A DNA stretch of 64,000 nucleotides from Candidatus Rhabdochlamydia sp. (GCA_049679255.1 JBAUFS010000124.1:1676-65675); one strand, 5' to 3'. Shown: positions 18,907 through 23,541, counted from the first letter of the stretch. Translations and numbers: made by a program. Notes: a model not told the origin generated them from the sequence alone.

Positions 18907-19755
18907 TTAGTTTTGACTGATTTGTTCCCTCACCATTTTTTGCAATTCCTTCTTACAAGCTTGCAAGGATGCTTTTACGGTGTTATTGTAAGAAGTGATT
19001 AGAGTCATATAGGATTTCATTTCAATGGAACTTTGCTGAGACTGTCCAATGAGCATTTGCATACTAGCATTGTCATCTGCATTCCAATCTTCCAGTGGGT
19101 TCTCAGCTTTTGGGTCTTTGATTTCTCCTTGATTAATTAAATAAACCTGTGTCATTGCCCAAGCAATCATGCGATTAAACTGGGTAGGATCTTTTTTTTG
19201 AGCGTTAGGTTGAAAATGTAAATCGGTTCCATGAAAATGCAAATCCTGGTCTTCTTTCCAATCGGAAATAGCATCTATCATGCTACGGCCAGCTATAGGA
19301 TTAAATTCTTTGTTAAAGCATTTAAAAAGATCTTGTGTAGTTGCCAAAAGAGTTTCGAGATCAGGATATTTTTTTACACGCTTTTTAAGCTCTGTAATAT
19401 TTTTTTGAAGATCCAAAATTCCATTTGCAAACTCCTTGATGACATTGCCTATTTTATCTTCTTCCCAAATCTGAGCAGTAGGCTCTTTTTCCGCAGATAA
19501 TTCAAGCTTTCCTATCTTTTCATTGAGCATGATCAGATTATTTTGTAAACCCCTTAATTCTTCTGCTGTGCGTGTTGCTTCTTCCATTTTTTTAGCAACT
19601 CGATCAAGAGCTCCTGTCCCCTTAGGATTTGTAACCAAAACAAGAATAGCAAGTACCAATAAAAGATTTATGTCATAACCTTTTTCCTTTTCGGTAAAAA
19701 AGCTATTGGGATTTGCTTCTTCTATAAATGGTATTTGTTGTATCGCTGCAGTCAT
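18907..19755 (-). CDS. T3SS tip/filament (SctA)-like helical protein, copy 2
   Basis: Paralogue of 22657..23541; C-terminus QSQQSSIEMKSYMTLITSYNNTVKASLQACKKELQKMVREQ. Confidence 0.55.
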   Translation of the reverse strand: MTAAIQQIPFIEEANPNSFFTEKEKGYDINLLLVLAILVLVTNPKGTGALDRVAKKMEEATRTAEELRGLQNNLIMLNEKIGKLELSAEKEPTAQIWEEDKIGNVIKEFANGILDLQKNITELKKRVKKYPDLETLLATTQDLFKCFNKEFNPIAGRSMIDAISDWKEDQDLHFHGTDLHFQPNAQKKDPTQFNRMIAWAMTQVYLINQGEIKDPKAENPLEDWNADDNASMQMLIGQSQQSSIEMKSYMTLITSYNNTVKASLQACKKELQKMVREQISQN

Positions 19756-19771
19756 AAAAGAACCTTAAAGC

Positions 19772-20206
19772 TTAAGATTGCATCCAGCTAGATTTCTGGG
19801 CATATTTTTTTAATGTAGCTCGCTTTTTTTTCTGAGGTATTTTTGTATCGAGAAGTTTTTCTACCTCCTCGGTATTTTTTTCAAACTCTTGTTGAAAAAC
19901 CACAAGTTTATCTCGATGTGGTGAAGCTGTATTTAAGAAGTAGGACAAAATCAATTGCAGCTGATCTTGTTCTAAGCCTAATTTCTCCGTTGCTGATTCG
20001 AGATAATCATACAGCAAGTGTCTTGCTTGTTCTAATTTCTCAGCAGCTATTTTCTGCTGTTCTTGACTTCCTTTAGAAACAGCTTCTTTTAGATCTACCA
20101 TCAATTTGTTCATCAAATTTAATAGCTCTTCAAAATGGACATCTTTATACTCCACATTTTCCCCTAAAAACGTTTCGATTTTTTCAATCTCTTTGTCTTT
20201 TTTCAT
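19772..20206 (-). CDS. Small helical protein ending KSSWMQS (start likely 20206, after AGGAG)
   Basis: Paralogue of 23921..24361; lies directly upstream of the SctA-like gene. Confidence 0.7.
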   Translation of the reverse strand: MKKDKEIEKIETFLGENVEYKDVHFEELLNLMNKLMVDLKEAVSKGSQEQQKIAAEKLEQARHLLYDYLESATEKLGLEQDQLQLILSYFLNTASPHRDKLVVFQQEFEKNTEEVEKLLDTKIPQKKKRATLKKYAQKSSWMQS

Positions 20207-20213
20207 AAAGCTC

Positions 20214-20666
20214 CTATATTTGAAGAATTGCTCTTGCCATAGATCCAACAGTATCTTGTGCCTGTGTCCAATGATTCCATTGTATTCTATCTTTAGTTAG
20301 CGCTTGTTTATTTTCTGATTGTAGCTTGGTAAGAAGGGCAGTTACACACGCTGTAGTTTTTCTCACATCACAACTGAGTTTTGAATCCCCTGGAGAGCTT
20401 TTTGATGCTTCTTCCGCATTGCAAAGCTTATCTATTGTTGGCATAAGTTTATTCAAACAACTATGTACACTATCACTAAGCCCTTTTGTACCTGCAAGAT
20501 TTGTTAGAATGCGCTTTAACTCTTGAGGATTATTAACCTCAGACAACGCATTCTTTAGAATGCTTTGTATATACGCATCATCTTTAGATGAAGAGCGTTG
20601 TTCCTCACTCAAATTAGAGAGAGTAGCTACTATTTTTGCTGCGGCTGCTAAAGAATTTTCTGCCAT
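20214..20666 (-). CDS. Hypothetical helical secreted-protein candidate (start likely 20666)
   Basis: First gene of the 20666-17175 operon; C-terminal amphipathic helix ending QAQDTVGSMARAILQI. Confidence 0.65.
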   Translation of the reverse strand: MAENSLAAAAKIVATLSNLSEEQRSSSKDDAYIQSILKNALSEVNNPQELKRILTNLAGTKGLSDSVHSCLNKLMPTIDKLCNAEEASKSSPGDSKLSCDVRKTTACVTALLTKLQSENKQALTKDRIQWNHWTQAQDTVGSMARAILQI

Positions 20667-21039
20667 GATTAGATCTCTTTTTAGTGTTTGTACTAATTTA
20701 ATCGACCTTAGTTTTATTAAAACATAAAAATGAATTAATTTCATAACTTTTTAATCCATTTTTTTGATTTAAAGTTAAATAAAATGAAATTAATAGATAA
20801 TAAAATTACTCGGAAGAAACAAGATTAGAAAAATCATCCAAAAGAAATTATTTTTAACCAATTACCCCTCTTTTTTGATAACTTGTTAATCAAATGAATT
20901 AAAAAAAAATTTACTTTTATTTAATGCAAAACTTAAAATGTCTTTTCTTTCCCCGGAAGAGAATGGAGAGCTTCTCATGATTTTCATCTTCTCTTCTTGG
21001 ATAAATAGATATGGATTTTTAAATAAACAGGAGGTAATT

Positions 21040-21987: not shown

Positions 21988-21990
21988 CCT

Positions 21991-22593
21991 ATGTCATCAA
22001 TTGCTACAATCATGGGTCTTACAAGCTATAATCCTTATAAAGAAGCGATAACTATGCTGGTTGGAGGCGCTAGTCCTTATTTAATAGATCACCTCACTCT
22101 TGAACCTACAAGCGTTGTATCTAAAATTGACCGCATTAGAGAAACTCTTTTTGGAATAAGAACACGATTTCTTAAGCTTACCCAAAAAAATGCCCTTACT
22201 AAATATACTTGGCTTTTTCTAAAGAGCGTTCCTTATAGTCTGGCCACATCTAAGGTGTTTTCTTTGCCTATGTACCTTATGATAAAGAGCGAAAAGGAAA
22301 TGGTTATTACTGAGAATACTCTTATCCTCATCAATTGTGTAAAACACCTGGTATTTTGGCTCTTTCTTAGTGCGAGTGTATATGATGAGTTAAACCCCCT
22401 TCCTCCTAAAAATCCCTTAATAGAAGGCTCCCCTCCTCGGGATAGTTCTTACCCTGTATATTATTACAATAGGCCAGCTACGCTTAATTACAGCGGAGGA
22501 GCATGGAAGGATTCCAGAAGGGTATCTGAAGCTAACTTAGGGCAAAAGTCCCCTCTAACCCCTTCAAGCCCAGGTGGTTATAAATTCTTTTAA
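21991..22593 (+). CDS. Hypothetical protein with hydrophobic segments
   Basis: 200-aa ORF 3 nt after the upstream stop; moderately hydrophobic helices and a Pro-rich C-terminus. Confidence 0.6.
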   Translation: MSSIATIMGLTSYNPYKEAITMLVGGASPYLIDHLTLEPTSVVSKIDRIRETLFGIRTRFLKLTQKNALTKYTWLFLKSVPYSLATSKVFSLPMYLMIKSEKEMVITENTLILINCVKHLVFWLFLSASVYDELNPLPPKNPLIEGSPPRDSSYPVYYYNRPATLNYSGGAWKDSRRVSEANLGQKSPLTPSSPGGYKFF

Positions 22594-22601
22594 ACAAAAA
22601 A

Positions 22602-22630
22602 AACGAGATAATCGGTGCGATTATCTCGTT
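22602..22630. terminator. Probable bidirectional terminator between convergent genes
   Basis: 12-bp perfect stem AACGAGATAATC/GATTATCTCGTT, loop GGTGC, with A-run and T-rich flanks. Confidence 0.8.
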
Positions 22631-22656
22631 CTTTCTTGATTTGGAAGGGAAAATGA

Positions 22657-23541
22657 TTATCCGGCTTTTTGGTTTCGTATAATAGCCTCTTTTCCTTGAG
22701 AAGAGGTTTGTATACCTTGCTGTCCTATGTTATTAAAGGAGTTTAAGATCTGCATAAATCCTTGTACAGCCGTAGTTTCCTGCTGTGAAGTACCAGAAGT
22801 TATCTGTTCACAAGCCTGCACGGATTGGCCCCATTCCCCTAAGTAATCGGTCTTAGCGTCACCAGAGCCACCTGGGTGGTTTTTATCATAGAAGTTCTTT
22901 GCTAGAGCAAAAATAGCTCCACAAAGAGTATTCGCCAGATTTTTACCATTTAGAGGGAAGTCTGTATTTCCATCCCAGTTTTTTAGCAATTGATCAAAAG
23001 CGTCCAGTTGTCCTGTATCACCCGATGGTGTAGGAACAGAAGCATTAAGGTCTTTAAGCCAGTTACCTACCATATCAGCTACAGCTTTCAATTTAGGATC
23101 GGAGCTTCCTGCTAGGGTTTTTTGGTCTTTACAAAGCTTTTCATAAGTATCCTTTAACTTTTTTAATAAGGATTTATCAAACTTTTTCCAGTCATCTGGA
23201 GAAATGTCTTTTTTAGAACCAAGCTCTGCTTCGATTTTACTAAGAATCCTTTGAAGTTCAATTAAGTCGTCTTGTACATCACTAAGCTCATTGGTCTCTT
23301 CTGTGATTTTTGCGATATTTAAAGAACAAACGTCCATGGCTCCATTTCCAGAGTCATTAGTCATAATCGCTAAAACAATCAACTCAAGCGTAGCTCCACC
23401 TGCAATCATAGCCTTAATACGATCTGCTAAAGACTCGGTAGGCAAGCTAGGATCGTCTTTAGACCAATCCACCTGCTTAGGAGCACTATTCTGCTGGATA
23501 ATACCTTCTAGCAGCTCTTGATTAAGTAATACATTTGACAT
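22657..23541 (-). CDS. T3SS tip/filament (SctA)-like helical protein, copy 1
   Basis: C-terminus TSQQETTAVQGFMQILNSFNNIGQQGIQTSSQGKEAIIRNQKAG resembles needle/tip C-terminal helices and the CdsF end MVRNQKTS. Confidence 0.6.
   Translation of the reverse strand: MSNVLLNQELLEGIIQQNSAPKQVDWSKDDPSLPTESLADRIKAMIAGGATLELIVLAIMTNDSGNGAMDVCSLNIAKITEETNELSDVQDDLIELQRILSKIEAELGSKKDISPDDWKKFDKSLLKKLKDTYEKLCKDQKTLAGSSDPKLKAVADMVGNWLKDLNASVPTPSGDTGQLDAFDQLLKNWDGNTDFPLNGKNLANTLCGAIFALAKNFYDKNHPGGSGDAKTDYLGEWGQSVQACEQITSGTSQQETTAVQGFMQILNSFNNIGQQGIQTSSQGKEAIIRNQKAG

Follow-up and report, generated by a model that had tools for sequence, protein, structure and literature searches.

The DNA considered here, hereafter the window, is a stretch of 64,000 nucleotides from Candidatus Rhabdochlamydia sp. 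(GCA_049679255.1, JBAUFS010000124.1:1676-65675), in which two genes, designated A and B, lie between positions 18,907 and 23,541 within a cluster of type III secretion system (T3SS) genes (Table 1). An earlier note, made from the sequence alone, had described them as paralogs. Both are indeed present there as minus-strand open reading frames (ORFs), their starts agree with those of their homologs, and their products match each other at 23% identity over 254 residues (BLASTP E = 2e-12). The T3SS cluster is the canonical chlamydial one, with a CesT-type chaperone, CdsD, CdsE, CdsF, CdsG, CdsN, CdsO, CdsQ and Pkn5. From position 24515 on the plus strand, the order is Scc4-like, CdsD, CdsE, CdsF, CdsG, an Rpn-type transposase gene, CT668-like, CdsN, CdsO, CdsQ and a Pkn5-like kinase. 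The minus strand carries two modules. The first runs from 20744 down to 17175 and consists of an ORF of 176 amino acids (aa), a 144-aa small gene, A, a CopB-like gene and a CopD/SseD-like gene, followed by a terminator-like hairpin; the second consists of a 159-aa small gene, a 380-bp gap, B and a palindromic hairpin. On circumstantial evidence, A and B resemble in function a T3SS tip or filament protein, of which they would be a new structural variant.

The window belongs to a 67-kb contig from a soil metagenome, and the closest homologs of both products carry the names Candidatus Rhabdochlamydia porcellionis, R. oedothoracis or Rhabdochlamydia sp. Orthologs of A, all named 'hypothetical', are 56-93% identical in R. 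porcellionis, R. oedothoracis and metagenome-assembled genomes (MAGs), and A holds the same position in four of the related loci that were compared with the window (L001, L003, L004 and L005). Orthologs of B are 68-87% identical. Both products are acidic proteins of ~32 kDa without a convincing transmembrane segment. In a 16-sequence alignment of the two subfamilies, the invariant columns include T42, N43, G48 and D51, which form a TN..G..D motif, together with L67, Q71, L74, I75, several Trp, G237, S239, Q240, Q241, M250, S255 and Q278. The N- and C-terminal motifs that the earlier note reported as shared are therefore invariant in this alignment, with the correction that SQQ and the following Y/F-M are separated by seven residues, not six. 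Comparison of the A subfamily with the B subfamily gives identities of 24-40% for residues 41-100, 26-36% for residues 221-260 and 5-19% for residues 101-160 and 201-220. The middles had been described as divergent, which is roughly right, but the otherwise divergent region contains a conserved W..D..G island at residues 161-180.

The C-termini of A and B resemble that of the needle subunit CdsF. The three tails read as had been stated: CdsF ends in NNMVRNQKTS, B in EAIIRNQKAG and A in KMVREQISQN. Distant members of the family end in MVSNQKPT, MIRNEKAS, MVTNQKTQ, MIQNQKTS, MVQNQKSA and IVSHQRAQ, and the cognate needles of these members end in MVRNQK(S/T)S or AVRNQKSQ. For example, the tail MIQNQKTS in locus L006 may be set beside MVRNQKSS of its own needle, and IVSHQRAQ in L012 beside AVRNQKSQ. 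The likeness of the family tail to the CdsF tail exceeds chance by three tests, and the parallel drawn in the earlier note holds in this respect. CdsF is the best non-self match (E = 0.069) of a profile of the family's last 55 columns among the 496 stop-to-stop ORFs of the window. End-anchored BLOSUM62 scores, compared with those of composition-shuffled CdsF tails, give z = 5.1 over 10 residues, 4.2 over 20 and 3.5 over 45. In a hidden Markov model score test, 10 of 1000 shuffles reach the score observed for CdsF.

The pattern shared with CdsF/SctF over the last 10-20 residues is a hydrophobic pair, then x-N-Q-K/R and one or two more residues, with a polar heptad pattern of conserved positions. 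Needles have an inner surface that is polar and conserved (PMC6140923). In other respects the family differs from needle subunits: its members are 3.5 times longer (282-294 aa, against a helix-turn-helix of ~70-90 aa), bear no likeness to the N-terminal helix or the hairpin turn of the needle, and are not encoded between CdsE and CdsG. In a comparison of the N-terminal block of the family with the N-terminal helix of CdsF, no likeness was found; CdsF ranks only 19 of 403, and the idea of a needle with an inserted domain was rejected on this ground. The C-terminal profile yielded nothing relevant in the PDB. The tails had also been likened to the 'AII.N' ending of PrgI-type needles. PrgI (2lpz) does end in AAIIQNFR, and AIIRNQK of B resembles it by eye, but PrgI scores no better than shuffles against the family profiles. 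The CT668-like protein (29181..29915) was considered as a further bearer of a needle-like tail and rejected, the tail not being present.

C-terminal similarity to the needle is also a property of SctI proteins. Since B adjoins the CdsD/E/F genes and the chlamydial SctI is poorly defined, A and B might be a needle-proximal axial part (an SctI-type inner rod or adaptor) or an assembly cap acting during needle growth. However, they are three times the size of known SctI proteins, occur as several paralogs per genome and have their linkage with translocator genes, not with the needle gene; judged by the profile search, they also seem to be absent from the Chlamydiaceae, which would need the same rod. 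Such a role is considered very improbable.

Seven independent contexts show a family member placed directly upstream of genes for hydrophobic translocator-like proteins; they are counted as the window with L001-L005 (as one), L006, L007, L008, L009/L011, L012 and L013. In six of the seven, the member is preceded by a small protein whose basic tail contains a Trp; in L013, the 150-aa gene just ahead of the member has no such tail, and a tail-bearing 144-aa protein lies further upstream. The order is A, CopB-like, CopD-like in the window, L001 and L003-L005, and small gene, member, CopB-like in L006, L007, L008 and L012 (the L007 contig ends before the CopB-like position). In L006, L008 and L012, the translocon operon is divergent from the CdsD/E/F/G/N cluster and ends at clpX. 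Downstream of the L013 member are five genes, of which three have transmembrane segments. Known tip and filament proteins are encoded in the orders lcrG-lcrV-(lcrH)-yopB-yopD and sseA-sseB-(sscA)-sseC-sseD. By this analogy, the family member takes the place that lcrV, espA and sseB occupy elsewhere.

A and B are each accompanied by a small partner gene that was duplicated along with them, a feature not mentioned in the earlier note. The 144-aa and 159-aa partners are themselves paralogous (BLASTP E = 2e-4), and the duplicated unit is therefore a two-gene module of member and partner. The partners belong to an unannotated family of small proteins of 124-165 aa, in which the helical body is acidic and the C-terminal tail is basic and ends in K-S-x-W-x-x-S; the Trp is invariant in a seven-member alignment. 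Two subtypes may be distinguished: one always adjoins the Scc4-like and CdsD genes, and the other always lies immediately upstream of a member of the tip-like family. Thus the 159-aa gene is kept beside the Scc4-like and CdsD genes in L001-L006 and L008, and a homolog of the 144-aa gene is found immediately 5' of a family member in L006, L007, L008, L009/L011 and L012. Pfam and NCBIfam scans revealed no similarity of the partner proteins to LcrG.

An AlphaFold2 (AF2) model of B, based on a 21-sequence alignment, is all-helical, with a mean predicted local distance difference test (pLDDT) value of 76.8 and a predicted template modelling (pTM) score of 0.65. The N-terminal 30 residues are disordered, without a Sec-type signal, and are followed by helices at 38-47, 52-60 (the hydrophobic LELIVLAIM), 68-106 (39 residues), 124-144, 149-164, 206-221 and 233-293 (the C-terminal helix, 61 residues). 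Along both long helices, conserved positions recur every 3.4-3.5 residues (22/2000 and 70/2000 permutations), which points to one conserved face on each. The earlier note had proposed conserved terminal coiled coils around a variable centre; of this, conserved long helices near the N- and C-termini and a more divergent middle are supported, and the predicted architecture fits a design of terminal helices around a variable centre.

The model of A is of too low confidence for a fold search, and Foldseek was run with the B model against the PDB. The top matches are antiparallel coiled-coil proteins, namely the dynein stalk, FlgK, FlgL, flagellin and IpaD. The first of them is the dynein stalk, an antiparallel coiled coil with a distal globular domain (probability 0.90), and flagellar junction proteins, flagellins or IpaD make up 22 of the top 50. 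The nature of these matches suggests that helices 68-106 and 233-293 may pair in an antiparallel manner. The best global topological resemblance is to the flagellar axial proteins FlgK, FlgL and FliC, with template modelling (TM) scores of 0.36/0.44 for FlgL (3pwx_A) and up to 0.38 for chains of 9go6. These proteins have the same design of tube-building terminal helices around a variable middle domain, but the matches are not significant (E 0.06-0.55), there is no sequence similarity, and the context here is that of an injectisome. FliD_N matches in Pfam are weak and occur in 3 of 21 members (best E = 0.17). The only profile matches below 1e-3 in the PDB, the LSD1 tower domain and a designed coiled coil, were dismissed as compositional coiled-coil matches rather than homology.

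The weak Foldseek matches include ClyA and the Hbl binding component (ranks 19, 22 and 40). A and B might accordingly be a third, membrane-active component of the translocon, that is, a soluble-to-membrane helical protein of the ClyA/MakA/Hbl kind which inserts its N-proximal hydrophobic helix into the host membrane. The segment is borderline in hydropathy (KD19 1.70 in A, at residue 32, and 1.88 in B, at residue 42), and a neighbouring 256/303-aa protein in related loci matches MakE weakly (E = 0.0023). On the other hand, the Foldseek probabilities for ClyA and Hbl are 0.10-0.21 and the TM scores 0.14-0.20, neither A nor B has a family match to ClyA/MakA-type toxins, the hydrophobic stretch spans only ~12 residues and is broken by a Glu in B, and the needle-like tail is left unexplained. 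The membrane-active role is regarded as improbable.

Among the known systems, the filament or sheath proteins EspA of enteropathogenic and enterohaemorrhagic Escherichia coli and SseB of Salmonella pathogenicity island 2 (the Ssa-Esc T3SS family) share with the A/B family the position 5' of two hydrophobic translocators (espA-espD-espB; sseB-sscA-sseC-sseD) and a nearby gene for a small helical chaperone (CesA, SseA), comparable with the small partner gene here. The likeness extends to an acidic, all-helical protein whose N-terminus is disordered and leads into a short hydrophobic helix, and which has conserved helices at both termini around a variable centre. In addition, the 176-aa CopD-like protein encoded downstream of A matches SseD weakly. 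In contrast, the members of the A/B family are ~90-100 residues longer. EspA (1xou_A) shows no signal against the family profiles, since 813 of 1000 shuffles score as well or better with the C-terminal profile and 219 of 1000 with the full one. The Pfam EspA family (PF03433) is not listed for A or B at E <= 1, and is not among the 25 most-matched of the 63 families listed for 21 members at E <= 10. Likenesses to EspA noticed by eye (LSIAKF and LNIAKI; NSQLEIQQM and QSQQDTTQIQ) were discarded as unsupported, because EspA scores like shuffles.

The needle-tip (SctA) proteins LcrV/PcrV and IpaD/SipD/BipD resemble the family in being acidic, of ~290-340 aa, with a long central helix pair that includes the C-terminal helix, and the order lcrG-lcrV-lcrH-yopB-yopD likewise has a small partner gene in front. 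The fold of IpaD, SipD and BipD consists of a central coiled coil, a self-chaperoning hairpin at the N-terminus and a distal domain of mixed alpha/beta type. LcrV is not among the 46 PDB sequence matches at E <= 10 and no Pfam LcrV match is listed; IpaD, SipD and BipD gave no sequence match in the PDB. Unlike the members of the A/B family, known tip proteins do not, to our knowledge, end in a copy of the tail of their needle. These results do not place A and B in the families of LcrV, IpaD or EspA, and no known family accommodates them by any test run.

CT584/Cpn0803, proposed earlier as the tip protein of Chlamydia, is another candidate for this role in the chlamydial T3SS. It is not, as far as we know, encoded in a translocator operon. 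The A/B family has long terminal helices and synteny with translocon genes, but has turned up only in Rhabdochlamydia and uncultured environmental Chlamydiae. The chlamydial needle cap has been an open problem since CT584/Cpn0803 was proposed for it and Cpn0803 was then found to lack the central coiled coil that is conserved in all tip families; Cpn0803 forms a pore-less hexamer (PMC3260263). The A/B family combines three features expected of a tip or filament protein, namely gene position, overall architecture and a tail of the needle pattern, and its members are the best available candidates for a cap or an extension of the chlamydial needle.

Taken together, a gene position that does not vary, a partner gene duplicated with the member, helical termini and a tail that copies the needle's lead to the interpretation that the A/B family is the needle-distal hydrophilic component of this T3SS, a functional analogue of SctA proteins (LcrV, IpaD, EspA) that docks on CdsF via its needle-like C-terminus. 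We hold this interpretation tentatively, at a little short of an even chance. Secretion, chaperoning by the partner, docking on CdsF and assembly into a cap or a filament may be envisaged as follows. A and B would each be held in the cytoplasm by their own small helical partner (the 144-aa or the 159-aa product) and exported through the T3SS via the disordered N-terminus. The long C-terminal helix would dock on the growing end of the CdsF needle, and its last 10-20 residues, which appear to copy the CdsF tail (M-V/I-x-N-Q-K), would continue the polar layer that lines the needle lumen. The N-proximal conserved helix would pack on the C-terminal helix, with the variable centre facing outward, and the docked protein would serve as a platform for inserting the CopB-like and CopD-like translocators encoded just downstream. 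A would be the copy dedicated to the translocon operon, and B, a duplicate of ancient origin that has a partner gene to itself, could form a cap that is either an alternative one or a mixed one.

Several results weigh against the interpretation of A and B as an SctA analogue. Pfam and NCBIfam scans of A and B gave no family match, to known tip or needle families or otherwise, and nothing resembling a solved tip, filament or needle protein, by sequence or by profile, came out of the PDB searches. No Foldseek match in the PDB is significant, the best having E = 0.033. The earlier note had envisaged a comparison with LcrV, SipD, EspA and Bsp22, and the Foldseek search gave no significant fold match to LcrV, SipD/IpaD or EspA: LcrV and EspA are outside the top 50, and IpaD, the best of the three, is matched (8v5e_A, 8v7q_D) with E = 0.44-0.67, TM 0.20/0.29 and a root-mean-square deviation above 13 A. 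The AF2 model of A is poor (pLDDT 56.6), with the same order of helices as in B. The likeness to CdsF is confined to the last ~20 residues and was noticed after the fact, and the 275-aa type represented by P0039 and L009 ends in KMAQIAG, without a needle-like tail. The N-proximal hydrophobic helix (KD19 1.7-1.9) could indicate membrane activity. No contig from RNA sequencing (RNA-seq) covers B at >=80% likeness, although such contigs show presence and not absence. Finally, the profile search of 1.84 billion representative proteins, which gave 21 clusters at E < 1e-3, yielded no member outside Rhabdochlamydia and uncultured environmental Chlamydiae. Therefore, the family cannot provide the tip in all chlamydiae, unless divergence elsewhere has made its members undetectable.

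Some of these results favour the reading that A and B are ordinary T3SS substrates (effectors, or accessory or regulatory proteins of the translocon), each with a dedicated chaperone and with no structural role in the needle. This applies to the lack of a significant structural match of B to tip proteins, to the tail-less subgroup and to the absence of the family from cultured chlamydiae in the profile search. Moreover, chaperone-plus-substrate gene pairs are common in T3SS loci, and several copies per genome are typical of effectors. The shared tail would then be a recognition element, read for instance by needle chaperones of the CdsE/CdsG type or by the export gate, or the product of convergence in a Gln/Asn-rich helix. 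However, T3SS export signals are N-terminal, the position 5' of CopB-like genes is strictly kept in very divergent lineages, at 20-35% identity, whereas effectors rarely keep such synteny, and the conserved positions are concentrated on helical faces near the two ends, not in a catalytic or host-mimicking centre. That A and B are substrates or regulators with no role in the needle is judged rather unlikely, but it is the main alternative.

The source names retrieved in the profile search are all 'hypothetical protein', from Rhabdochlamydia or uncultured Chlamydiae MAGs, and no hit came from a named cultured Chlamydia, Parachlamydia, Simkania or Waddlia. No paper describing the family was found in the literature. 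The L006 and L008 MAGs (CAWHZZ010000002.1 and CAVOSF010000005.1) are deposited as 'uncultured Verrucomicrobiae' and carry CdsD, CdsF, an Scc4-like gene and a translocon operon. Their CdsF is 82-86% identical to that of the window, and judged by these genes they look like mislabelled Chlamydiota.

The number of family members per genome may exceed two. In a neighbour-joining tree, A groups with the 275-aa members that precede CopB (78% bootstrap) and B with the 281/286-aa members (88%), which makes the divergence of A from B an old one in the Rhabdochlamydia lineage. Beside clpX in L011 (4142..9846; also in L009 and L010) there is a second translocon operon, complete and with two further members, which does not occur on the contig of the window. 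Its order is a 136-aa small gene, a 275-aa member, CopB-like, CopD-like, 260-aa, 141-aa and 256-aa genes, a second member of 281/286 aa and clpX, and its CopB-like protein is 52% identical to that of the window. The operon recalls the duplication of CopB/CopD and CopB2/CopD2 in the Chlamydiaceae. L011 and the window-like L005 are ~36 kb apart on one 365-kb Rhabdochlamydia contig (JBOFFP010000003.1), and that genome thus has four family members and two translocon sets. The account of two variants in the earlier note is therefore incomplete. P0044/P0060 were considered as a third paralog in the window and rejected, since they belong to the second operon and have no match in the window.

That A and B may give interchangeable tips, as the earlier note suggested, is compatible with the duplication of paralog and partner and with the two translocon sets. 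A more far-reaching proposal is that the family is the missing chlamydial-type SctA, a third structural class of tip which extends the C-terminal lumen-lining helix of the needle, and that Rhabdochlamydiae possess two to four interchangeable versions with their own chaperones and two translocon sets, switched by stage or host. This is possible but doubtful. If the tip interpretation is true, the family would constitute a new structural class of SctA, and tip and chaperone genes would duplicate together with translocons. If it is false, the A/B family would still be a new translocon-linked T3SS component deserving a name. Rhabdochlamydia porcellionis can be grown in insect cells.

Table 1. Features of the A and B modules and the adjoining T3SS genes (coordinates in the window unless a locus is named).
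Feature	Coordinates	Strand	Description
Paralog A	18907..19755	-	282 aa, pI 5.2, ATG start; translocon-linked member, directly upstream of CopB-like gene
Paralog B	22657..23541	-	294 aa, pI 4.65, ATG start; stand-alone member adjoining CdsD/E/F needle cluster
Small partner gene of A	19772..20206	-	144 aa from ATG at 20206 (TTG-start ORF reaches 20248); acidic helical body, basic tail ending SSWMQS; putative dedicated chaperone
Small partner gene upstream of B	23921..24400	-	159 aa; paralog of 144-aa gene; tail ends SDWMRS
Small-protein family outside the window	L006 4244..4693, 7513..7908; L008 5889..6386, 7544..7918; L009 2146..2556; L012 5563..5979		
CopB-like major hydrophobic translocator	17715..18893	-	392 aa; long Gly/Ala-rich hydrophobic block, maximum KD19 2.59
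CopD/SseD-like minor translocator	17175..17705	-	176 aa; weak SseC (Pfam E = 0.04) and translocon_SseD (NCBIfam E = 0.002) matches; hydrophobic segment
Conserved basic 176-aa ORF	20214..20744	-	first gene of A operon, pI 9.3; 53-81% identity in L001, L003-L005; no family match
Terminator-like hairpin closing A operon	17106..17135	-	13-bp stem, then T-run on minus strand
Palindromic terminator-like hairpin	22602..22630	.	13-bp stem; between convergent 200-aa gene and B
Scc4-like CesT chaperone	24515..24898	+	Pfam CesT E = 3.3e-9
CdsD	24932..26617	+	named by position and by homologs in L006 and L012
CdsF needle subunit	26914..27165	+	83 aa; between CdsE and CdsG

The assignments in the T3SS cluster rest on the following matches. 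The product named CdsD is 59.5% identical to a 575-aa protein adjoining the Scc4-like gene in L006; the Pfam matches to CdsD_PD1, CdsD_PD2, CdsD_C and FHA come from a scan of the syntenic L012 protein. CdsE matches DUF5398 (Pfam E = 4.7e-22), CdsG matches NF052304 with 187.7 bits, over its cutoff, and ATPase, YscO-like, FliN_C and kinase family matches underlie the region of CdsN, CdsO, CdsQ and Pkn5. CdsF is nearly invariant, with 82-100% identity across L001-L006 and L008.

An RNA-seq run of a host organism contains contigs of a related strain (~88-90% identical) that cover positions 17195-20677, although DNA carry-over is possible. A single contig (18882-19931) spans the start of the CopB-like gene and A and extends into the small partner gene, and the 176-aa ORF, CdsD and CdsF are likewise covered.

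Between strains that share 75-97% identity in A, the small genes and CdsD, the identity of the CopB-like protein is no more than 64-72%. The difference is greatest around 17909..18171, where 261 nt are swapped for 201 unrelated nt in the RNA-seq contig of the related strain; this replacement indicates that the N-terminal region of the CopB-like protein is hypervariable. The accessory protein of 256-303 aa found in related loci (L009 6159..6929, L006 6605..7516 and L008 6638..7531; E = 5e-34 between loci) contains, in its centre, a hydrophobic patch rich in Gly/Ala, and its weak match, MakE, is a subunit of an alpha-pore-forming toxin; no clear counterpart exists in the window. The 176-aa ORF that opens the A operon was considered as a remnant of this protein, but the support (E = 0.008 alone) is unconvincing. 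The same ORF aligns as two pieces in L001, L004 and L005, which suggests frameshifts there.

The A and B modules are separated by two plus-strand genes without family matches, 20938..21987 (349 aa) and 21991..22593 (200 aa). They are 36-71% identical between strains, far more variable than their neighbours; the 349-aa gene has no match in L002, and no match to the 200-aa gene was obtained in L004. Both may encode strain-specific effectors. Within the T3SS cluster, a gene for an Rpn-family recombination-promoting nuclease or putative transposase (28050..28979, plus strand; TIGR01784 E = 3.3e-47) lies between CdsG and the CT668-like gene. The kinase at the Pkn5 position (34512..36083, plus strand; Pkinase E = 7e-48) carries a C-terminal PP2C/SpoIIE phosphatase-like domain (SpoIIE E = 3.4e-8).

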